Source: a virus (Duplodnaviria; Caudoviricetes). Taken from it: a DNA stretch of 64,000 bases. The stretch lies in IMG/VR virus record IMGVR_UViG_3300031949_001696; one strand, given 5' to 3'. Made by a program: the position numbers and the translations under genes. Shown in pieces: positions 43,917-62,073 of this stretch (the first letter of the stretch is position 1; every line of letters begins with the position of its first letter). The notes beneath the pieces are model-generated. The model ran no database searches. It saw only the letters and a program-made list of their open reading frames with translations, and was not told the origin of the DNA.

Positions 43917-44384
43917 GTGAGGGCCGGGTACGGGCGCGGATACTACGGCGAAGGTCAGCTCGCGCGCAGCGCCCCGCGTCGTCGGAGCTGGTTCACTGTT
44001 GTTGCCGTCCTCGGTGTCGGCGCCGCGGTGGTGTGGCTCTTGTGGCCGCGTGGATCGTCGCCCGAGCCTATGTACGGGGGCAAGGAGTCCGAAGCTCCTC
44101 CGCCTCCGCCTCCGCCGTCAGGAGCCCAGATCCAGATCAGTCCTCCGACGTCGTTGCTGCTCCAGATCAGCGCGCCCGCCGAGGCTTCTCCGCCCGGTGT
44201 GGCGGTGGGTGCCTTCCTCAAGCAGCTCGAGGACGACGCGCTCTTGCGTGGTTTTTCGTCTACCAAGGAGTACGAGGACTCGGTGATCGCGATCGCCAAG
44301 GAGCTTGGGGCCACGGGCACGAAGGTCATGCTCGCTCCGCATCTACAGCACCTCGCCCCGCGCTTGGGGTCTTCGGCGCCGTGA
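43917..44384 (+). CDS. TM protein with RGYYG tag
   Basis: AGGAG SD; TM segment; poly-Pro. Confidence 0.65.
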   Translation: MRAGYGRGYYGEGQLARSAPRRRSWFTVVAVLGVGAAVVWLLWPRGSSPEPMYGGKESEAPPPPPPPSGAQIQISPPTSLLLQISAPAEASPPGVAVGAFLKQLEDDALLRGFSSTKEYEDSVIAIAKELGATGTKVMLAPHLQHLAPRLGSSAP

Positions 44385-46426
44385 GCGATCCCGCTTCGTC
44401 TGCCCGCCGCTTTGTCTGCCGCGCATGCGGCCACAGGCATGCCACCTGGGCAGCACGCTGTTCGAGCTGCCGCGCGCTGGAGGGACTCACCGTCGAGTTG
44501 ATCGAGGTGCCGGTCTTGCTTCCGGCTCTTCCGCCGCAGACGCAGAGTGTTCCGCAGGTGGTGGCGCCGGAGCCGTCACGTCCGCGTCTCATGATCGCGC
44601 GCGCGCCCGAGCCTGCTCTCGAAGATCCGGCCGAGGAGCTGGTGGACGTTGCCTCGCCGGCGTCGGTGCCACTCTCCGATGTCTCCGAGACGACGTTCGC
44701 GCGCGATTTGACGGGATTGACGCCGCTCGACTACGTGCTCGGGGGCGGCCTCGTCGTGGCCTCCGTCATCTTGCTTGCGTCTCCGCGAGGGATCGGCAAA
44801 TGCCTCGGCGGCGGAACTCCCGTGCTCATGTTTGACGGGCGCTCGCTGCCTGTTGAGCAAATTTTACCGGGTGATCGTTTGATGGGTCCCGATGGCAAGT
44901 CACGTACGGTTCTCGCGACGACCGCTGGTATCGGAGAACTTTTCCGAATTGATCCGATTAAGGGTGAGCCCTGGATTTGCAACGGTGCGCATGTACTCAC
45001 GCTGGTCAACGGCCATACCGACGAAGTGATTGACGTGCCGCTTAGTGAGTGGCTCGCGAAGACACCGCACTCCGATCTGCGGCGCTATGGAAAGTTGTTC
45101 AGCACAGGCATCAACACGTTCGGAGATTCGACCGCAAACGAGCAGCATCTTTTGCCGATCGACCCTTATTTCCTTGGAGTTTGGTTCGGTGATGGAACGA
45201 AATGGCGCATCGAACGGACAACGGGCGAACAGCTCGCGAAGATTCAAATTACCAAACCCGATCCTGAGATTCTTGCGTTGTGTGAGGAACAGGGACGTTT
45301 GTGGGGTCTTCGTGTGCATACATACGAGTCCGCAACCAAGCGCGCTTCATATCAGCTTGTCGCGAATGAAGCTCCAGAAGGTGAAGGACGTTGGGCACCA
45401 AATCCATTGCTGCGTGCCCTTCGCGATATCGTTGGACCGGAGGTCAAAGTCCCCGACGCGTATCTCCGAGCCCCGCGGGGCCCGCGCCTTCAGTTTCTAG
45501 CAGGCTGGTGCGATACGGATGGCGAACTTGCGGGCACAACCTTCGTTATTTCGCAAAAGCGTGAAGACTGGGCGCGTACCATCTGGTGGCTCGCGCGCTC
45601 TCTCGGTTTCTGCGCGACCATTAAAACGCGAACCTCTCATTACACACGACCTGACGGTTCGCGCTTTGAAGGAACATACTGGGTCGTATTTATCAGCGGC
45701 GATACAGATCAAATCCCCACGCGACTACCGCGCAAGAAAGCGCCGCCTCGACGACAGAAAAAAGTCGCGACGCGGACCGGATTTACTGTGCATTCCTTGG
45801 GCGAGGGCGCTTATTACGGTTTTTCGCTCGACAGTGATGGGCGCTTCCTGCTCGGGGACTTCACTGTCACACACAATTCATCGCTAGCGCTCCAGATGCT
45901 CAACGGACTCGGGCATCGCTGTCTGTACGTATCGGGAGAGGAGACACTTGAGCAGGTGGCCATGACGGCTCGCCGTATCGGCGCGGCCTCGAAGAAGGTC
46001 AACATGCTGCCCGAGAGGAATCTCTCCATGATCTTCGCCGAGGCGCGCGCGATCCGGGCACAGACGATCGTGATCGATTCGATCCAGAAGATGCGCTGTG
46101 ATGACGTGGGCGGTCGCGCCGGTTCGCCGGGACAGCTCAAGGAGTGCACGGCGCAACTGGTCGACTACGCCAAGAACAACAGGACGGCTCTCTGGCTCAT
46201 TGGACACACGACTTCCGATGGCGACATCGCGGGGCCCATGACGATCGAGCACGAGGTCGACGTGGTGCTCGAACTGACGCAAGGCGCAAAGTTTGACGGC
46301 AATGAGCGGATCCTCACGTGCTTGGGCAAGAACAGGTTCGGACCGAGTAACCTGGTGGGACACTTCGAGCTGACCGCCAAGGGTTTTGTCTCCGTCGACG
46401 CCGACGGGTGGAACGAGGAGCTGTGA
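44381..46426 (+). CDS. radA: RadA/Sms-like ATPase (Zn finger + RecA core, no Lon-like domain) with intein
   Basis: FVCRACG...W...CSSC; LDYVLGGG; GIGK|S; YVSGEE; VIDSIQ; KNRFG. Confidence 0.85.
   Translation: MSDPASSARRFVCRACGHRHATWAARCSSCRALEGLTVELIEVPVLLPALPPQTQSVPQVVAPEPSRPRLMIARAPEPALEDPAEELVDVASPASVPLSDVSETTFARDLTGLTPLDYVLGGGLVVASVILLASPRGIGKCLGGGTPVLMFDGRSLPVEQILPGDRLMGPDGKSRTVLATTAGIGELFRIDPIKGEPWICNGAHVLTLVNGHTDEVIDVPLSEWLAKTPHSDLRRYGKLFSTGINTFGDSTANEQHLLPIDPYFLGVWFGDGTKWRIERTTGEQLAKIQITKPDPEILALCEEQGRLWGLRVHTYESATKRASYQLVANEAPEGEGRWAPNPLLRALRDIVGPEVKVPDAYLRAPRGPRLQFLAGWCDTDGELAGTTFVISQKREDWARTIWWLARSLGFCATIKTRTSHYTRPDGSRFEGTYWVVFISGDTDQIPTRLPRKKAPPRRQKKVATRTGFTVHSLGEGAYYGFSLDSDGRFLLGDFTVTHNSSLALQMLNGLGHRCLYVSGEETLEQVAMTARRIGAASKKVNMLPERNLSMIFAEARAIRAQTIVIDSIQKMRCDDVGGRAGSPGQLKECTAQLVDYAKNNRTALWLIGHTTSDGDIAGPMTIEHEVDVVLELTQGAKFDGNERILTCLGKNRFGPSNLVGHFELTAKGFVSVDADGWNEEL
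44801..45877 (+). mobile_element. Intein (359 aa) with LAGLIDADG homing endonuclease in the RadA P-loop
   Basis: Starts CLGGGTPV, ends FTVTHN|S; PYFLGVWFGDG and FLAGWCDTDG; lower GC. Confidence 0.92.
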
Positions 46427-53565: not shown

Positions 53566-54056
53566 GCTTCCGCGAATCTGCCACCGCGATCGCACAGCGC
53601 ACCGCCGGCAACTTCATCGGTGTCGTGCTCTACGTCCCCGTGGGAGGGCAATCTACGGTGCCGTGGTGGAGCGCCGACGCATTCATGAATACTGCGGCTC
53701 TTGAAGAATGGTACGAGGGGATCGCGAACTCACCGCCGCTCTACTACTACATCGCCGCATTCGACAAGACGCGCGGCGCCATTCCCGTGGGTGAGGCGAT
53801 TGCTCCTCCCAAGCCTGGAATGTACGGCTTCGACGTTCATTCCAAATGGCGCCATCCCCCATTCAGACGCGCGACAATCTCCGGCGAAGCGCGCGGCAGT
53901 GGCCCGGTTGACTTCGCGAAGACCCTCGCGATCTTCGCGTTGTTCGCAGTTCCAGCGGGACTGCTCATCTCGAAGCTGCAAGAGCGAAAGCATCTCCGAG
54001 AAGAGGAGACGGCGTTTCGTCGGCTCGGCCTGGACTGGAATCTCAGGAGTCGGTAG
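53562..54056 (+). CDS. YIAAFDK-domain protein with C-terminal TM
   Basis: AGNFIGVV...WY...YYIAAFDK matches the 6306/12285 domain. Confidence 0.7.
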   Translation: MSFRESATAIAQRTAGNFIGVVLYVPVGGQSTVPWWSADAFMNTAALEEWYEGIANSPPLYYYIAAFDKTRGAIPVGEAIAPPKPGMYGFDVHSKWRHPPFRRATISGEARGSGPVDFAKTLAIFALFAVPAGLLISKLQERKHLREEETAFRRLGLDWNLRSR

Positions 54057-54511
54057 TGAGCACGAGCGAGGTTGCGCCTGGGCTCTACGTCGGCAGTAAA
54101 CCCCCGCCGGGGCGGCACGAGGGTGTCGACGTGATCGTCTTGGCCGCGATGGAGTACCAGCCGCCCGCGCACCTGTTCCCGGGGATCGAGGTGATTCATG
54201 CACCGCTCGATGACGCTCCGGGTCGGCGGATGCGCGAAGACGAGATTGCGATCGCGACCAAGGCGGCCAAGCGTGTCGCGCAGCTACTGCGCTCGGGCCG
54301 CCGTGTGCTCAGTACATGCCAGTTGGGTCTCAATAGATCGTCGCTCGTCGCCGCGCTCGCGATGCACGACGTCTATGGCATGAGCGCGAACGAGCTTGTT
54401 ACGAGGCTTCGGCGAGCTCGTGGCGCGTGGGCACTATCGAATCCAAATTTCGAGAAGCTCTTACGCGTCGTGATCGACGTGCGGGACGGCGGCTCGCGCT
54501 GCTCTCCATAG
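54056..54511 (+). CDS. Dual-specificity phosphatase-like protein
   Basis: GLYVG, PLDD, CQLGLNRS (CX5R), NPNF. Confidence 0.8.
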   Translation: MSTSEVAPGLYVGSKPPPGRHEGVDVIVLAAMEYQPPAHLFPGIEVIHAPLDDAPGRRMREDEIAIATKAAKRVAQLLRSGRRVLSTCQLGLNRSSLVAALAMHDVYGMSANELVTRLRRARGAWALSNPNFEKLLRVVIDVRDGGSRCSP

Positions 54512-54722: not shown

Positions 54723-55160
54723 CTACGGCTTCGTCTCGTGGGGCGGCTTCGGGATCGATTGATCGACGGGCGTGATCTCGTCATTGGACGCGACGCGTGT
54801 GTCGTCGTCGAGGTCGACCTTGACGACGTCTCGCGTGGTCGTCCGCGGGATCTCGTCGAGCGGGACGCGGACGAGCGGTGTCATTTCGCCGGTCGGGATT
54901 CGCGGCGGCGTGACGTCGTCTTCGTCGAGAAACGGCGCCATCACCAGGTGGAGCGCACGCTGCGGATGATCGGGGACGTCGACGAGGACGAACAAGTCGC
55001 GTCCGGCTCCCGGACGAAGGCCGGGGAGGCGTCCGAGGCGTCGCATGTCGTCGATCTCTTCCCAGATCTCGACGATCTCGTCGTGGGCGAGCACCGTCTC
55101 GGCCGTCGTCAGGAACTTGCCCGTCTGCCGGAAGTAGATCAGCTGGACCTTGTACGTCAC
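54723..55160 (-). CDS. Hypothetical protein
   Basis: Strong coding bias. Confidence 0.65.
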   Translation of the reverse strand: MTYKVQLIYFRQTGKFLTTAETVLAHDEIVEIWEEIDDMRRLGRLPGLRPGAGRDLFVLVDVPDHPQRALHLVMAPFLDEDDVTPPRIPTGEMTPLVRVPLDEIPRTTTRDVVKVDLDDDTRVASNDEITPVDQSIPKPPHETKP

Positions 55161-55233
55161 CTACGCAGCACGGTATCGCGCGCCGTGAACGATCGCGAAT
55201 CTTCGGCCGCCACCGCGCGGACATGCGCGTTCG

Positions 55234-55262
55234 TTGACTTCGTAGCAGCGCCGCGCTAGCAT
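55234..55262 (+). promoter_or_regulatory. sigma70-type promoter of the tRNA array
   Basis: TTGACT-N17-TAGCAT. Confidence 0.7.
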
Positions 55263-55278
55263 CCTTCTCGTACCAGTC

Positions 55279-55452
55279 ATGTCGATCGCATCCATATCCA
55301 CGAGAGTCACAAGGCGCCAAGGCGTCATGGGACGCGTGTGTGCTCGCCGCGATTGGGCCAAAGCTGCGAATTTCGCCGGCCACGGGACCGTCGAGGGTAT
55401 CAAGCGCCAGCCGCAGCCCACGACCTACGAAGGAAAGGCTCCAGACGCATAG
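55279..55452 (+). CDS. Putative 57-aa leader peptide (MSIASISTRVTRRQG...YEGKAPDA)
   Basis: ATG about 10 nt after predicted TSS; last codons overlap the antiterminator 5' strand; too short for the ORF track; no SD. Confidence 0.55.
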   Translation: MSIASISTRVTRRQGVMGRVCARRDWAKAANFAGHGTVEGIKRQPQPTTYEGKAPDA

Positions 55453-55487
55453 ACCGAGCTAGAAGATAGCCGAAGCGATCTGGAGCC
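55437..55487 (+). promoter_or_regulatory. Putative antiterminator helix
   Basis: GGCTCCAGA (55437-45) is the exact complement of TCTGGAGCC (55479-87). Confidence 0.6.
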
Positions 55488-55523
55488 GCCCTGGGAACAA
55501 ACCCTCGGCGGTTTTTTCGTTTT
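55482..55523 (+). terminator. Intrinsic terminator/attenuator immediately before the first tRNA
   Basis: CCGCC/GGCGG stem, inner GGG/CCC, then TTTTTTCGTTTT. Confidence 0.75.
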
Positions 55524-55524
55524 C

Positions 55525-55608
55525 GGGTGCGCAGACCGGCGTGGTCCCGGGCCTGACTGTAGATCAGGCGTGCTCTGCACCGTCTTGGTTCGATTCCAGG
55601 CGCGCCCA
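55525..55608 (+). tRNA. tRNA-Tyr(GTA), atypical D-arm
   Basis: Acceptor GGGTGCG/CGCGCCC; loop CTGTAGA; variable arm; TTCGATT. Confidence 0.8.
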
Positions 55609-55669
55609 CGAAAGGAAAGGAGACGTGATGCAGAAGAAGCTCAAACGTTCGACCGCGGAAACCCATCCT

Positions 55670-55741
55670 GGGCCCGTGGCGCAACGGTAGCGCACTCGGC
55701 TTTTACCCGAATTGTTGGGGGTTCGAATCCCTCCGGGCTCA
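55670..55741 (+). tRNA. tRNA-Lys(TTT)
   Basis: Cloverleaf; loop CTTTTAC. Confidence 0.9.
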
Positions 55742-55753
55742 CGAACAGATTGA

Positions 55754-55824
55754 TCAGGGTTCGTCCAACGGTAGGACCTGCGCCTCTGGAGCGCATGACG
55801 AGAGTTCGAATCTTTCACCCTGAA
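55754..55824 (+). tRNA. tRNA-Gln(CTG)
   Basis: Cloverleaf; loop CTCTGGA. Confidence 0.9.
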
Positions 55825-55965
55825 CCGCGGCCGACTGCATCGCGCGTGAATCGACGGTCCCCCGAGCAACAGCGCTCACAGCGGGACGACAGCGACACGG
55901 CGAGGACGGGGCATGAAAACAGAAGCTAGAACTGAGTGTCGGACGGTCTTGATACGATCGTCACG

Positions 55966-56436
55966 ATGGGTAAGCAGTGCACTCAATGTCACAAGGTCAA
56001 AGCCGTTGCCGAATTTCAATACAGAACTGCGACGACGGCACGGTGTCGTGAATGCAACAAGGCAGCATGCCGTGCCTGGCATGCCAAGAACAAAGGCGTT
56101 TACAAAGAGAAACGAAAGGAGCAGTGGAAGAGTCGAAATCGACCCGCCATCGAATTCGTACTCGCCGCGAAGAGTAAGCCTTGCACAGACTGCGGGCGAA
56201 CCTTCCATCCTGTGGCGATGGACTTCGATCATGTGAAAGGAAAGAAGACCACTGAAATCTCGACACTGATGAGAAGTGGCTACAGCTTGGAGCGGATCAA
56301 GAAGGAAGTCGCCAAGTGTGAAGTGGTGTGCGCATGTTGCCATCGTGTACGAACGCTCAAGAGAATGGGCACCAGTTCAAGACCGTATTCCATGTACGAC
56401 GTGTTCACGGACAACGGAAAGCTTCTTGGCAATTGA
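55966..56436 (+). CDS. HNH endonuclease-like protein
   Basis: CTDCG, MDFDHV, KCEVVCACCHRVRT. Confidence 0.8.
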   Translation: MGKQCTQCHKVKAVAEFQYRTATTARCRECNKAACRAWHAKNKGVYKEKRKEQWKSRNRPAIEFVLAAKSKPCTDCGRTFHPVAMDFDHVKGKKTTEISTLMRSGYSLERIKKEVAKCEVVCACCHRVRTLKRMGTSSRPYSMYDVFTDNGKLLGN

Positions 56437-56485
56437 ATAGTTGAATGACGATGACGCGATCGCGGCATGTAGCACGATCGCAAAT

Positions 56486-56558
56486 GCCCAGACAGCTTGC
56501 TTGGTGCAAGCGCCGTCCCGAAAAGTCGGAGATGATCGTTCGAACCGATCTCTGGGCA
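56486..56558 (+). tRNA. tRNA-Phe(GAA)
   Basis: Loop CCGAAAA (C33). Confidence 0.85.
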
Positions 56559-56560
56559 CT

Positions 56561-56632
56561 GCCTCCGTAGCTCCAATGTAGAGCAAGCGGTTCTTACCCG
56601 TGAGGCTGTTGGTTCAAGTCCAACCGGGGGCA
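56561..56632 (+). tRNA. tRNA-Lys(CTT)
   Basis: Loop TTCTTAC. Confidence 0.85.
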
Positions 56633-56787
56633 CTAGTTCTCGTTGCTGTCCTTCCAAAAGCTCACAAGCGCGGTGGGGATCAGCAGTAACAGAAACAGCA
56701 CGATGTCACGTAGACGCCAGCCGTCGCCGAAGTCACTCATACTAGAAAGATCGTTCCGCGCTGGGTTTCGTGACAGGAAAAGTTCAA

Positions 56788-56861
56788 CGGGGTGTAGCTC
56801 AGCTTGGTAGAGCGCGTGCCTTGGGCGCATGAGGTCGCAGGTTCAATTCCTGTCGCCCCGA
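56788..56861 (+). tRNA. tRNA-Pro(TGG)
   Basis: Canonical cloverleaf. Confidence 0.95.
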
Positions 56862-56947
56862 CGAGAAACATGGGTGCCTGAGGACCCTGTCGGCGTTGCC
56901 GACGAACGTTGAAGCACGGCGCCGTGCTGAGACGACCAGGAAAACTT

Positions 56948-57018
56948 GCAGGTCAGGCCGACTGGCGAGGCACCGCGTTGCCAACGCGGATAGACGGATT
57001 CGATTTCCGTGATCTGCT
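56948..57018 (+). tRNA. tRNA-Gly(GCC)
   Basis: Loop TTGCCAA; U73. Confidence 0.85.
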
Positions 57019-57024
57019 CTGAAG

Positions 57025-57096
57025 GCCCGTACAGCACGATGGTCGTGCAGCAGTTTCGTAAACTGCCGGTTGCCGGTTCAAGTCCGGCTGCGGGCT
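57025..57096 (+). tRNA. tRNA-Thr(CGT)
   Basis: Loop TTCGTAA. Confidence 0.9.
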
Positions 57097-57100
57097 CGAC

Positions 57101-57173
57101 GCTATCGTAGCTCAGCTGGCAGAGCACCTGACTTGTAATCAGGGGGTCCCGAGTTCGATTCTCGGTGGTAGCT
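57101..57173 (+). tRNA. tRNA-Thr(TGT)
   Basis: Canonical cloverleaf. Confidence 0.95.
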
Positions 57174-57183
57174 CGATGATCAT

Positions 57184-57266
57184 TCCGAGGTAGCCTAGCG
57201 GCAAGGCACGCGGCTGTTAACCGCGCGTGGGAAACCACATCGTTGGTTCGAATCCAACCTTCGGAG
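57184..57266 (+). tRNA. tRNA-Asn(GTT) with long variable arm
   Basis: Loop CTGTTAA; G73; extra hairpin GTGG-GAAA-CCAC. Confidence 0.85.
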
Positions 57267-57350
57267 CGTACGGTTCTCGCGCAGTTCCTTCAGGCGATTG
57301 GCTCCGGGCGTTCCCAGCTCGGTGCAGGCTCCGCGGCGCGTGAACCTTCT

Positions 57351-57422
57351 GCGGGTGAGGCCGACTGGCGAGGCACCGGGTTTCCACCCCGGCTAGGTAG
57401 GATTCGATTTCCACCATCCGCT
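57351..57422 (+). tRNA. tRNA-Gly(TCC)
   Basis: Loop TTTCCAC; U73. Confidence 0.8.
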
Positions 57423-57435
57423 CGAATGCGCGCAT

Positions 57436-57507
57436 GTGCACGTAGCTCAGCAGCAGAGCGCCGTCTCGACAAGGCGGATGCCGCAGGTGCAATCCCTGCC
57501 GTGCACA
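57436..57507 (+). tRNA. tRNA-Val(GAC)
   Basis: Loop TCGACAA (C33); T-loop TGCAATC. Confidence 0.85.
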
Positions 57508-57516
57508 CGATGACAC

Positions 57517-57668
57517 GTCGTGTTCGTCTAGCGGCCAAGGACGCTGGTCCCTGTGTCCGTCGCCCCATCGCGCGGTGCGGTGAGTCGTCGGACACTAGGT
57601 TCGGTCAGTGATGTCGTAACGCCACTTCCCTCAAACCGGCAACACGGGTTCGAGTCCCGTACACGACG
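57517..57668 (+). tRNA. tRNA-Glu(CTC) interrupted by a 79-nt insert in the anticodon loop
   Basis: Intact acceptor GTCGTGT/ACACGAC, D and T arms; removing one TCCCT-bounded unit gives CTGGT-CCCTCAA-ACCGG. Confidence 0.75.
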
Positions 57669-57681
57669 CGAAGAAGTTTCT

Positions 57682-57754
57682 GCCCCTGTAGCTCAGCAGA
57701 TAGAGCGCCTGGCTACGGACCAGGATGCCGGAGGTGCAAATCCTTTCAGGGGCG
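57682..57754 (+). tRNA. tRNA-Arg(ACG)
   Basis: Loop CTACGGA. Confidence 0.9.
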
Positions 57755-57835
57755 CTAGGCGAACGTGCACGTGGGCAGCTCACAACGATGTCTCACCATC
57801 GTTGCGATGACTGGTGCACCGACGCCTCAATTTCT

Positions 57836-57902
57836 AGGCCGTGATCTGGGATCAGCTTGGTTTCCAAAACCGATCAGCGAGGTTCAATCCCTCGACGGCC
57901 TG
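57836..57902 (+). tRNA. tRNA-Trp(CCA), shrunken D-arm
   Basis: Acceptor AGGCCGT/ACGGCCT; loop TTCCAAA; D-arm GATC-TGG-GATC. Confidence 0.75.
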
Positions 57903-57906
57903 CTAC

Positions 57907-57981
57907 GTGGTCTTGGCCTCGCGGACGGCGAACGCGAGGAGGAAGCTAAAGCACAGCTGGGTGAAAGTCCCGGAGACCACG
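57907..57981 (+). ncRNA. tRNA-like RNA without anticodon arm
   Basis: GTGGTCT/AGACCAC; T-like arm CTGGG-TGAAAGT-CCCGG; hairpin CCTCGCG/CGCGAGG. Confidence 0.55.
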
Positions 57982-57985
57982 CCTT

Positions 57986-58057
57986 CGCGGCGACTAGTGG
58001 ATCTAGACGGCGGTTTCATAAGCCGCTCGGAGTGCGGTTCGAGTCCGCCCGTCGCGA
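57986..58057 (+). tRNA. tRNA-Met(CAT), atypical D-arm
   Basis: Loop TTCATAA; TTCGAGT; Met, fMet or Ile2 identity unresolved. Confidence 0.75.
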
Positions 58058-58061
58058 CTCA

Positions 58062-58133
58062 CGGGGTGTAGCTCAGGAGTAGAGCGCATGGTTCGGGACC
58101 ATGAAGCCGCTGGTGCGATTCCAGTCACCCCGA
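58062..58133 (+). tRNA. tRNA-Pro(CGG)
   Basis: Loop TTCGGGA. Confidence 0.9.
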
Positions 58134-58138
58134 CTCAC

Positions 58139-58212
58139 GGAGAGTAGTTCACCGGGCGGTGATGCCGATTTTACATGTCGGCTGCGCATGGGTTCGAGTC
58201 CCTGGCTCTCCA
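58139..58212 (+). tRNA. tRNA-Val(TAC), atypical
   Basis: Acceptor GGAGAGT/GCTCTCC; loop TTTACAT. Confidence 0.7.
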
Positions 58213-58218
58213 CGATTT

Positions 58219-58290
58219 CCGCTCGTAGCTCAACGGTTGAGCGCGTGCTTGATAAGCGCGAGGCTGGTGGTTCGAGTCCACCCGAGCGGA
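58219..58290 (+). tRNA. tRNA-Ile(GAT)
   Basis: Loop TTGATAA. Confidence 0.9.
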
Positions 58291-58303
58291 CGATGAGAAC
58301 GAC

Positions 58304-58375
58304 GGGCCTCTAGTTCAACAGTAGAACGCTCGGCCTATTACCGAGATGTTGAGGGTGCAAATCCTTCGGGGCCTA
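58304..58375 (+). tRNA. tRNA-Ile(TAT)-like
   Basis: CTCGG-CCTATTA-CCGAG; C33 and T37 non-canonical. Confidence 0.65.
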
Positions 58376-58382
58376 CGATCAC

Positions 58383-58459
58383 GGTGCATGGAGCCAGCTG
58401 GAGACGGCGCTCGGATGTGGCCCGAGTTTCGGCGAGTTCGATCCTCGTCATGCACCCCA
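58383..58459 (+). tRNA. tRNA-His(GTG)
   Basis: G-1:C73; loop ATGTGGC; encoded CCA. Confidence 0.9.
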
Positions 58460-58463
58460 GTTT

Positions 58464-58535
58464 CGAGCAGTGGCGAAGTGGCATCGCGCCGGTTCGGGGA
58501 ACCGGAAATCGCAGGTTCGATCCCTGCCTGCTCGA
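58464..58535 (+). tRNA. tRNA-Pro(GGG)
   Basis: Loop TCGGGGA (C33). Confidence 0.88.
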
Positions 58536-58612
58536 CGAAAGGAGGTTGCGGCCGATCTACTGTCAGATCGTTCGTGCAGGAGCGTCTAGTCTATAGAAGG
58601 AGAACGAACGCC

Positions 58613-59149
58613 ATGGAGCCGACACATCAGACTCTGGTCCTTTCGCAAGGCTACGAACCGGTCAAGATCGTTTCGTGGCAGCGCGCCATCACGCTGCTCT
58701 TCCTCGGTAAGGTCGAAGTGGTCGAGGAGTACGACCGCGGCATCAAGACGACGTCGCTCGTGATCAAGATCCCGTCGGTGGTGCGGCTCCTCAAGGCATT
58801 CCGTCGGTACCCAAAGCCGGTGAAGTTCTCACGGATCAACATCTACGGGCGCGACAAGTACACCTGCCAGTATTGCGGGACGAAGAAGTCGATCGGCGAG
58901 CTGACGTACGACCACGTTGTGCCGCGTTCGCGGGGTGGAAAGACAACGTGGACCAACATCGCCACGTGCTGCTCGGACTGCAATCGCCGAAAGGCGAATC
59001 GCACACCGGAGCAGGCCGGCATGCGGCTGCTCAAGGAGCCCGTGCTGCCGACCGCCACGCCGGTGCTGGTAGTGGCCGTGAGCCGTGAGTCGGCACCCGA
59101 CGCGTGGCGCGATTACCTGTACTGGACGAGCGAGTTGGACGAAGACTGA
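58613..59149 (+). CDS. HNH endonuclease (McrA-like)
   Basis: AAGGAG SD; RD.YTCQYCG, LTYDHVVPRSRGG, W.N...C..CN..K. Confidence 0.92.
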   Translation: MEPTHQTLVLSQGYEPVKIVSWQRAITLLFLGKVEVVEEYDRGIKTTSLVIKIPSVVRLLKAFRRYPKPVKFSRINIYGRDKYTCQYCGTKKSIGELTYDHVVPRSRGGKTTWTNIATCCSDCNRRKANRTPEQAGMRLLKEPVLPTATPVLVVAVSRESAPDAWRDYLYWTSELDED

Positions 59150-59180
59150 TGTGCGAGCGCGCGGCAACGCGCTCGCATTT

Positions 59181-59255
59181 GGGGACGTAGGGGAGCTGGC
59201 CGTCCCCGCTGGCCTGTCACGCCGGAAATCGCGAGTTCGAATCTCGTCGTTCCCG
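59181..59255 (+). tRNA. tRNA-Asp(GTC)
   Basis: Loop CTGTCAC; G73. Confidence 0.92.
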
Positions 59256-59266
59256 CTTCGCGCTTT

Positions 59267-59335
59267 GGGGTGAGTACCGGGGTACAGCTGACCCTCGCAC
59301 GGTCGGCCCGCCGAGTTCAACTCTCGGTCGCTCCA
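59267..59335 (+). tRNA. tRNA-Ala(CGC), shrunken D-arm
   Basis: G3:U70; loop CTCGCAC; D-arm GTAC-CGGG-GTAC. Confidence 0.75.
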
Positions 59336-59339
59336 CGAC

Positions 59340-59411
59340 GGGTCCATGGCTCAATGGGAGAGCGCTCGCATGGCATGCGAGAGATTGCGCGTTCGATTCG
59401 CGCTGGATCCA
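59340..59411 (+). tRNA. tRNA-Ala(GGC)
   Basis: G3:U70; loop ATGGCAT. Confidence 0.9.
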
Positions 59412-59445
59412 CGATCGCTGCTCAACCGCGCGGTGCCCACACGCA

Positions 59446-59514
59446 CCATTGATGCCTCAAGGTGAGGCGTCGGCCTTCGGAGCCGAAAGTCTGGTTCAAT
59501 TCCAGATCATCCCC
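59446..59514 (+). pseudogene. tRNA-Arg(TCG) with destroyed 5' acceptor strand
   Basis: D, anticodon (CTTCGGA) and T arms intact; only 3 of 7 acceptor pairs form. Confidence 0.7.
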
Positions 59515-59866: not shown

Positions 59867-60433
59867 CTAGCGCAGGGTGATTCGAGCGATCGCCACGGCG
59901 TTCTCGCGCTCGAATGTCTCGCGATTGATCGAAAGCACGAGATCGTTGTCTTCGTCGGCGAACGCGCGCGCTTTCGATGAGGTGTCAAGGTCGAAGCCTA
60001 GCTTCTCGAACACGCGACATGACGCGACGTTCGCAGGGATCACCGATGCGTAGATCTGCGTGAGCCCCAAGCGCGCGAAGCCCGCGGCGCAGATCATCAA
60101 CGCGAAGCGCGTGCCGAGACCCTTACCTTGCTCGTTGGGATCTGCGATCAGGAATGCGAACTCGCAGGCACCGTCGTGCGACGTGCGCAGGTCGCCGTCG
60201 CCGACGAGGCACCCATCGCGGAACAACAGGAAGGGATGTCCACGGTCGGCGATCATGTTGACGTAGTGCTCGAGCACGTCGGCTTCATCGAGCGGCTCGG
60301 TGTGACCGAGCAGCGCCGCGTTCTTTGGGTCGTTGTAGGCAGCGGCGAACGTGGGGGCGTGCTTGTGCACGTCGTTCACCGTTGCCTCAACTGCGCTGAG
60401 ATCATTCCACTCCACGCGTAGCAGCTCCGTCAT
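59867..60433 (-). CDS. GNAT (RimJ/RimL-like) acetyltransferase
   Basis: GGAGG SD; QGKGLGT, N.AS..VFEKLGF. Confidence 0.85.
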   Translation of the reverse strand: MTELLRVEWNDLSAVEATVNDVHKHAPTFAAAYNDPKNAALLGHTEPLDEADVLEHYVNMIADRGHPFLLFRDGCLVGDGDLRTSHDGACEFAFLIADPNEQGKGLGTRFALMICAAGFARLGLTQIYASVIPANVASCRVFEKLGFDLDTSSKARAFADEDNDLVLSINRETFERENAVAIARITLR

Positions 60434-61684: not shown

Positions 61685-62056
61685 TCAAGGTTGTTTGAAG
61701 TAGCGGCGCGCGAGGTTCGCCGCGGTGCCGCTGTGCTTTCGCCCGGGGCGCACCCACGCGATGTCTCCGTTCGAGCGCGCGGTCATGGTCTCGTCCCGCG
61801 CTTCGTCGGTCGAGAAGCCTCCGACCGTCGGGAACCCTCCGACGTTGTTTCGCGGCGACGTGAACATGTGGAACACCTGCACGCGCAGAGCGCGCTCGTC
61901 GCGCAGGTAGAGCTGGGCCAGCAGGTCGCAGCCTCGCGCGTCTCCCACCACGAACGCGGCTTCTTCCGCGATCGCTGTCGCGATCCGTGGAGCGTAGTGC
62001 GCGCGGAACTCGTCGACCGTGAGGTCGAGATGTCCGCTGATGAAGTAGGTCTTCAT
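61685..62056 (-). CDS. Hypothetical protein (possible SLOG-like nucleotide-binding fold)
   Basis: FISGH, FVVGDA.G.D, RD..M, SGT..N. Confidence 0.65.
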   Translation of the reverse strand: MKTYFISGHLDLTVDEFRAHYAPRIATAIAEEAAFVVGDARGCDLLAQLYLRDERALRVQVFHMFTSPRNNVGGFPTVGGFSTDEARDETMTARSNGDIAWVRPGRKHSGTAANLARRYFKQP

Positions 62057-62073
62057 GTGGGTCGTTTACCTGA

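Follow-up and report, generated by a model that had tools for sequence, protein, structure and literature searches.

What controls the expression of the tRNA arrays that phages carry? Such arrays are usually viewed as fixed aids to codon usage or as spares kept against host anticodon nucleases. Feedback control by the ribosome is known from amino-acid, synthetase, resistance and whiB7 genes; literature searches found no published attenuator of tRNA genes or of phage tRNA arrays. The question is raised by a 64,000-nt stretch of phage DNA with a GC content of 63% (the whole stretch that was analysed, called the window here), in which a compact leader element of 290 nt directly precedes an array of tRNA genes. 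A sequence-only reading of this locus had described the leader as a leader-peptide attenuator that gates both a backup tRNA array and a Ro60 gene.

The window encodes an intein-bearing protein, sugar-modifying enzymes and many proteins that belong to no family. Its 145-aa gene next to the leader had 311 homologs in a protein search, many of them on soil and sediment metagenome contigs 200-530 kb long, and the window is thus read as a section of an uncultured jumbo phage genome. Its host is probably actinobacterial, the clues being a -10 box of the TANNNT type, the GC content of 63%, and relatives of Ro60 and of the neighbour gene in actinobacterial phages and MAGs; Ro60 of the window is about 40-45% identical to the Ro60 of Mycobacterium, Gordonia and Streptomyces phages. 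ARAGORN called 25 tRNAs between 55525 and 62520. The genes that frame the leader are arranged as follows.

54723-55160, minus strand: neighbour gene, 145 aa, divergent from the leader.
55234-55262, plus strand: promoter from a consensus scan, with the -35 box TTGACT (55234-55239), a 17-nt spacer and the -10 box TAGCAT (55257-55262).
55279-55452, plus strand: leader ORF, 57 codons, ATG to TAG.
55525-55609, plus strand: tRNA-Tyr(GTA), the first gene of the array (ARAGORN).
55525-59509, plus strand: first block of the tRNA array (tRNAs by ARAGORN and Rfam).
59867-60433, minus strand: GNAT gene, the next confident gene after the first tRNA block.
61685-62065, minus strand: ORF of high GC3 between the first tRNA block and Ro60.
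From 63092: TROVE/Ro60 gene.

The extent of the transcription unit, as we infer it, makes the first block (55525-59509) the stretch most plausibly under leader control. The proposed gating of Ro60 found no support: the minus-strand GNAT gene and the high-GC3 ORF separate the first tRNA block from Ro60. A Y RNA or other Ro60-binding RNA was also dropped as an identity for the leader, which has no Rfam match of this kind and lies 7.5 kb away from the Ro60 gene.

The leader module was found on 19 distinct homologous contigs of uncultured jumbo phages, recovered by way of the neighbour gene, the leader peptide, and tblastn over fetched loci, and in all of them it directly precedes a tRNA array. 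These 19 leader versions consist of 17 close homologs, a distant type (L028) and a further type (L062); a profile search matched 48 clusters of leader peptides. The promoter, ATG, stop position, T-rich tail and the helices termed P1, P2 and P3 below recur across the 19 contigs, a recurrence that exceeds chance. The leader is followed by tRNAs in the order Tyr, Lys(TTT), Gln(CTG), Phe in all close homologs. In L028 it precedes tRNA-Gln(TTG) and has a shorter ORF with the same stop, P1, P2, P3 and tail. The leader is intact in L031, where tRNA-Tyr has no D arm, and some related phages (L015, L016 and L023) have arrays beside the same neighbour gene but no leader of this kind.

Searches beyond these contigs had little yield. 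No near or distant DNA relative of the window was found in phage and plasmid collections, neither exact nor degenerate patterns had a match in IMG/VR, no relative of the neighbour protein was found in IMG/VR, and GTDB genome contigs gave nothing or just 18 chance inverted repeats unrelated to the leader. Metagenome assemblies are thus the only known source of the leader family. In a search with a covariance model of the leader's 3′ domain, each locus had one copy and the window no second one. Among contigs of four soil and sediment runs there were only fragmentary relatives, including a single contig with an 80-nt skip. A query of public runs listed no RNA run that contains the stretch.

The promoter lies where it had first been read (TTGACT-N17-TAGCAT), is of the sigma-70 type, and is the sole TTGAC-N17-19-CTAGC site within the window. 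The pattern TTGACW-N17-TAGNNT is retained in 17/17 aligned homologs, and in L028 and L062 as well. The 5′ UTR of the leader appears to be short, and in the window leader the 16 nt that separate the -10 box from the ATG hold no Shine-Dalgarno sequence, which agrees with the earlier remark that none is visible. In L028 a GTG lies 7 nt downstream of the -10 box, a position that would fit a leaderless message. At the other end of the leader, the gap between the terminator-like hairpin and tRNA-Tyr is too small for a second promoter, so the hairpin cannot be an absolute stop.

The earlier counts for the ORF of the window (57 codons, 38 distinct codons, 19 amino acids and no Leu) are correct. An ATG is present in 17/17 close homologs and the stop codon lies at a fixed +13 nt from the start of P1 in 16/16, with the identity TAG in 14, TAA in L043 and TGA in L005; ORF length ranges from 55 to 68 codons across the close homologs. 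When a MAFFT alignment of the DNA was built without translation, 12/12 gap runs within the ORF were multiples of three, versus 3/12 after the stop. One soil contig carries a 2-nt deletion inside the ORF that is compensated by a 2-nt insertion 12 nt later, and 3/48 peptide clusters finish in another frame across P1. As the remaining frames of this GC-rich stretch are nearly open too, openness alone is little evidence, and the argument is carried by the start, the stop and the indels in multiples of three. Coding on the opposite strand was considered and rejected: although the in-frame antisense frame is open in every homolog, it shows no coding signature, and its overlap with the neighbour gene is out of frame.

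Selection on the frame is not accompanied by signs of selection on the product. The adjacent 145-aa gene served as the comparison for the leader ORF within one set of ten genomes, and a test for purifying selection on its amino acids came out negative by both entropy and pN/pS. Entropy at the three codon positions is 0.50/0.49/0.55 in the leader ORF versus 0.47/0.32/1.01 in the neighbour gene, and pN/pS is 0.76 versus 0.35. Synonymous divergence is about half that of the neighbour gene (pS 0.285 versus 0.531), which implies that constraint acts on the RNA; that the codon positions evolve alike implies that the codons are not selected as codons. GC3 of the ORF (0.68) equals bulk composition, and confident genes have about 0.8 or more. 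The invariant block at the C-terminus has about 13 nonsynonymous versus 6 synonymous events by hand count, which is near neutral, and the product has no Pfam match. These comparisons indicate that the reading frame is selected and that the peptide is not under protein-level selection.

The RNA elements within and downstream of the ORF are listed here.

55313-55326, plus strand: hairpin Pa (GGCGC-CAAG-GCGTC, codons 12-16; RNAalifold).
55431-55448, plus strand: antiterminator 5′ strand, composed of an upper extension, AGG (55431-55433), the P1 core GGCTCCAGA (55437-55445) and an inner extension, CGC (55446-55448).
55450-55452, plus strand: stop codon, in the loop of P1.
55458-55470, plus strand: hairpin P2, within the P1 loop and next to the stop, predicted in every homolog.
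55475-55487, plus strand: P1 3′ strand or switching segment, GCG-A-TCTGGAGCC, shared with the terminator.
55486-55511, plus strand: GC-rich core of the terminator hairpin P3, with an extended stem at 55482-55515.
55512-55524, plus strand: T-rich tail TTTTTTCGTTTTC, ending 1 nt before tRNA-Tyr.

The antiterminator 5′ strand is made up of the last seven sense codons (51-57), and the P1 core in codons 53-56 is exactly complementary to the segment at 55479-55487. The perfect helix that had been noted between the last leader codons and a segment overlapping the 5′ arm of the terminator is thus found, but it has only 2 nt (55486-55487) in common with the core stem and 6 nt (55482-55487) with the extended stem. 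Among homologs, the overlap of P1 and its extensions with the P3 5′ arm is 2-7 nt long. Both strands of the P1 core are invariant (15/15 identical, 15/15 paired), and the 3′ strand is invariant across all homologs. Of the conservation that the sequence-only reading would have expected among homologs, the frame, the stop position and covariation in the terminator stem were found, but the invariant P1 core has no covariation of its own. The motif GGAGCC has two possible partners, the 5′ arm of P1 and the 3′ side of the extended terminator stem, and this dual pairing would explain the invariance of the segment.

Outside the P1 core the helices vary in sequence. An inner extension of P1 is predicted in every homolog, its register being one of two that depend on the first base of codon 57 (G with AAGCG, T with AAACG), and a C-to-T change in L039 pairs with an A that is otherwise bulged. 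The stem of P2 is GGCT/AGCC in most homologs, GCTA/TAGC in the window and CGGC/GCCG in L038. Within the ORF, pair 64/73 of Pa (RNAalifold) is CG in 10 homologs, UA in 3 and UG in 1, and the change from CG to UA alters the peptide from Arg to Cys and from Val to Thr. A pairing of codons 36-40 with the 3′ arm of the terminator, seen in the minimum-energy fold of the window, is lost in homologs and was discarded. An Rfam search of 55200-55640 at E up to 10 matched only the tRNA itself and one chance snoRNA, with no T-box, and a scan at the gathering thresholds gave tRNAs only.

The hairpin and T-tract ending 1 nt before tRNA-Tyr are present as first described, and the hairpin is kept in homologs. 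P3 has a predicted energy of -14.1 kcal/mol for the core and -18.7 kcal/mol for the extended stem, and 99.5% of its cells are paired across homologs. One of its pairs is GC in 8, UA in 4, AU in 3 and GU in 1, and another is GC in 12 and AU in 3. The CGTTTTC of the tail is nearly invariant. The start of the tail is interrupted in most homologs (CTTTCTCG); apart from the window, L030 alone has a canonical tail, CTTTCTCGTTTTC is what most homologs carry, and the tail of L062 is degraded. The efficiency of termination at the predicted terminator is therefore uncertain. The tail can also pair with the purine-rich codons 50-53 to form a tentative helix, P0. For roughly half of the homologs, and for L028, this helix clearly outperforms shuffled controls.

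The choice between P1 and P3 was modelled with a decision-time fold of each homolog that began 12 nt ahead of P1 and stopped at the final base of the P3 3′ arm, so as to cover the RNA that is free to fold before the T-rich tail has left the polymerase. In the free RNA the CC that both helices share is predicted to be held in P1, leaving the base of the terminator unformed, in 17/17 homologs; both shared cytosines are predicted in P1 in 16, and only one of them in L028 and L062. When the RNA is masked as far as 12 nt beyond the stop, in imitation of a terminating ribosome, the full P3 is predicted in 17/17. The attenuation geometry that had been proposed, in which a ribosome at the stop favours the terminator and a free 5′ arm leaves its base unformed, is thus predicted throughout, and thermodynamic folding of both states gives antiterminator and terminator as mutually exclusive in 17/17. 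For the 3′ domain as a whole, the P1 state is favoured over the masked state by 10-18 kcal/mol, so the terminator should depend on something external to keep the 5′ arm occupied. Relative to the stop, the 5′ arm is 5-13 nt upstream and the 3′ arm begins 27 nt downstream; the footprint of a ribosome is about 30 nt, and the modelled distances would fit it.

Among the homologs, L062 alone has an altered P1 5′ arm. Its last codons carry AAG-to-GAG and GCT-to-ACT changes, and its P3 5′ arm is changed as well. The resulting antiterminator helix covers 15 positions with one mismatch, spans the whole P3 5′ arm, and has a continuous upper extension. The GCT-to-ACT change has no compensating change, and this would count mildly against a strict need for the outer pairs of P1.

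We lean, with modest confidence, towards the view that a uORF-type, ribosome-mediated transcription attenuator heads this jumbo-phage tRNA array. It is preferred because an ORF that is selected for its frame and indifferent to its peptide, together with two conserved competing helices, directly precedes tRNA genes. Transcription would begin at the conserved promoter and the 57-codon ORF would be translated. The last codons of the ORF would serve as the 5′ strand of P1, which encloses the stop and whose 3′ strand overlaps the 5′ arm of P3. If these codons were free of ribosomes as the polymerase reached the tail, P1 would form first and hold the base of the terminator; this would be the case when the ribosome had stalled or slowed upstream of about codon 47-49, or had never loaded. 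With the terminator base held in P1, the polymerase would read into tRNA-Tyr and the rest of the array. A ribosome at the last codons or the stop would instead cover the 5′ strand of P1, allowing GGAGCC to complete P3 and transcription to end. Efficient translation would then yield few phage tRNAs and impaired decoding more. Translation of the ORF, termination at P3, and the position of the ribosome as the deciding event are parts of the model that we infer from sequence and folding. The 5′ two-thirds of the ORF, which are structured and conserved at the nucleotide level, have no role in a simple attenuator of this kind.

What such a switch would sense is constrained by the codon content of the leader. 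The ORF has no run of regulatory codons, and the sensor would be general, responding at many codon types and not tuned to one amino acid. The suggestion that the codons of the leader match the anticodons of the array did not hold: 13/57 codons, all three Ser codons among them, have no cognate in the 25 ARAGORN-called tRNAs, and codon positions evolve alike. The lack of Leu, which had been remarked on as well, is true in the window and is not conserved, Leu codons being present in 11/17 homologous leaders. By analogy, the absence of a codon run and of codon matching would fit only a general sensor of the whiB7 type. The earlier proposal of a general sensor for tRNA damage or starvation would have its precedent in the whiB7 uORF. 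Sensing specific to Tyr was rejected, as the leader has a single Tyr codon, a ribosome stalled there would mask P1, and the codon is absent in L030 and L005.

A different use of the same sequence is a structured leader RNA that acts post-transcriptionally, which we regard as unlikely. In this view a three-way junction built from P0, P1 and the upper portion of P3 would abut tRNA-Tyr and guide or time RNase P cleavage, or leave a stable functional RNA; the hairpin would not act as a regulated terminator, and whether the ORF is translated would be of secondary importance. This would account for synonymous sites about twice as conserved as those of the neighbour gene, for covarying hairpins inside the ORF, and for a tail that in many homologs makes a poor terminator. 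The minimum-energy fold of the full leader is in most homologs the three-way junction, with the tail paired to codons 50-53, and L028 retains the tail pairing through a different 5′ strand (8 bp). An RNA derived from an attenuator and having a function of its own also has a precedent in rnTrpL (PMC6614838). A post-transcriptional role nevertheless leaves unexplained the indels in multiples of three, the invariant ATG, and a stop that keeps its distance as TAG, TAA or TGA. Full complementarity within the terminator is kept although the three-way junction does not use it, and P0 does not exceed shuffled controls in roughly half the homologs.

The invariance of P1 would also follow if the leader were bound by a factor, an explanation to which we assign a low probability. 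A protein, or RNA polymerase itself, would recognise the invariant P1 helix and the invariant loop in codons 41-46, with the leader acting as a put- or EAR-like signal for processive antitermination through the structured array or as an attenuator controlled by a repressor, in the manner of ribosomal-protein operons. Direct recognition would give the pattern seen, in which both arms of P1 and ATCAAGCGCSAGCCGCAG are invariant while neighbouring helices covary, and attenuators that depend on a protein are known for L10/L12 and L20 (PMC4538822, PMC1865079). No candidate factor was identified, however, and no Rfam family matched even at E up to 10. The invariance would likewise follow from the use of the switching segment in two helices, and binding of a factor leaves conservation of the frame unexplained. 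That the ORF is an ordinary gene for a 57-aa protein with a leaky terminator, and the tRNAs are expressed by constitutive read-through, is hardly credible: gene callers report the ORF in many contigs, the 48 peptide clusters align, the C-terminal 'PQPTTYEGKAPD' is nearly invariant and some third-position differences from the closest relative are synonymous, but codon-position entropy is flat and pN/pS about 0.75 where the adjacent gene is normal, GC3 falls short of that of confident genes, a covarying RNA pair overrides two residues, and the C-terminal block is near neutral in a product that matches nothing in Pfam.

If the leader is a ribosome-dependent switch at the head of the array, the phage would measure decoding performance and adjust its supply of tRNAs. 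More tentatively, giant phages of soil actinobacteria may gauge translation stress in this way, with slow ribosomes switching on the tRNA array as a counter-defence feedback, a proposal that we find plausible without favouring it. The triggers, if this is true, could include host anticodon nucleases that cut tRNAs, or the exhaustion of host tRNA pools. The leader would also be an ORF that is selected for being read and not for its product, and that overlaps a structured RNA. As such it would be useful for testing gene callers as well as models that treat dual coding and structure constraint.

Among known systems, the uORF of whiB7 in mycobacteria and other actinobacteria comes nearest in its logic. 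Efficient translation of that uORF allows a Rho-independent terminator to form, and stalling or loss of the start codon leaves an antiterminator and leads to read-through; the whiB7 uORF is a long one with a diverse amino-acid content, its sequence varies from species to species, and it answers many translation stresses, including knockdown of tRNAs and tRNA synthetases (PMC10274678). The two-state logic proposed for the phage leader is the same, and the host phylum is probably the same. The whiB7 uORF controls a transcription factor, whereas the phage leader precedes tRNA genes, has no alanine enrichment, and has an ORF whose RNA shows strong structure of its own and nucleotide-level conservation. 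A relationship between the two, whether by sequence or through Rfam, was not found.

The leaders of the trpL, hisL, leuL, pheL, thrL and ilv type share with the phage leader a promoter, a short ORF, alternative hairpins and a T-tract. As in these classical attenuators, a ribosome at the leader stop is predicted to mask the 5′ strand of the antiterminator. Unlike them, the phage leader has no run of regulatory codons for one amino acid, its ORF is about two to four times longer, and its output is tRNA and not biosynthetic enzymes. The phage leader also has no upstream 'segment 1', so its untranslated state is predicted to read through and not to super-attenuate.

T-boxes work without translation: they bind uncharged tRNA directly, through a specifier loop and a T-box bulge, and their targets are synthetase or amino-acid genes. 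The likeness would lie in a leader RNA whose choice between antiterminator and terminator reports tRNA status, as proposed for the phage leader. The phage leader differs in having no T-box match at E up to 10, and its conserved reading frame points to the ribosome as the sensor.

The proposed antiterminator helix of the leader, P1, encloses the stop codon of the 57-codon open reading frame in its loop, and in 7 of 16 homologs each of the three frames meets a stop codon within the loop stretch (55453-55478 in the window). These stops lie at positions +13, +23 and +27 or +30, counted from the start of P1, so that in these homologs the 3′ arm of the helix would be beyond the reach of a ribosome translating in any frame.

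Further features of the leader and the tRNA genes behind it were seen in two metagenome loci from related uncultured jumbo phages and in the window:

L028:319-530, (-), distant form of the leader, its reading frame shorter
L031:1040-1140, (-), tRNA-Tyr without a D arm, behind the leader and missed by ARAGORN
Window 55525-55607, tRNA-Tyr, anticodon GTA (ARAGORN)

The reading frame of the L028 leader has its GTG 7 nt downstream of the -10 box, a spacing that would fit a leaderless message, and the leader is followed by tRNAs for Gln(TTG), Lys and Pro in place of Tyr. In L031, tRNA-Tyr has lost its D arm, yet the leader, the terminator and the subsequent tRNAs are intact. The tRNA-Tyr of the window scores 36 bits with the Rfam tRNA-Sec model, which is under the model threshold, and this resemblance is likely due to its long variable arm.

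The gene transcribed divergently from the leader, with a second interval of the window:

54723-55160, (-), 145-aa neighbouring gene
54056-54511, (+), second interval

No Pfam family was found for the 145-aa gene, which has 311 homologs; in relatives it lies close to an AAA_25/DnaB-like ATPase and to a gene that weakly resembles dual-specificity phosphatases.

The tRNA array itself contains an insert, and endonuclease domains are found both within it and elsewhere in the window:

55827-56485, 660-nt insert separating tRNA-Gln(CTG) from tRNA-Phe
about 58600-59149, (+), gene with an HNH endonuclease domain, within the array
44033-46426, (+), ORF of 797 aa carrying Hint and homing-endonuclease domains

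The corresponding gap between tRNA-Gln(CTG) and tRNA-Phe in the related locus L001 is only ~150 nt as opposed to 660 nt, which suggests that the longer stretch was inserted recently into the window array. It carries an ORF of 155-166 aa that could lie on either strand, and whose sole match, to DUF6510, is weak and sub-threshold. HNH genes are also present at comparable array positions in L001 and in another related locus, L042. The combination of Hint and homing-endonuclease domains marks the 797-aa ORF as a host protein bearing an intein.
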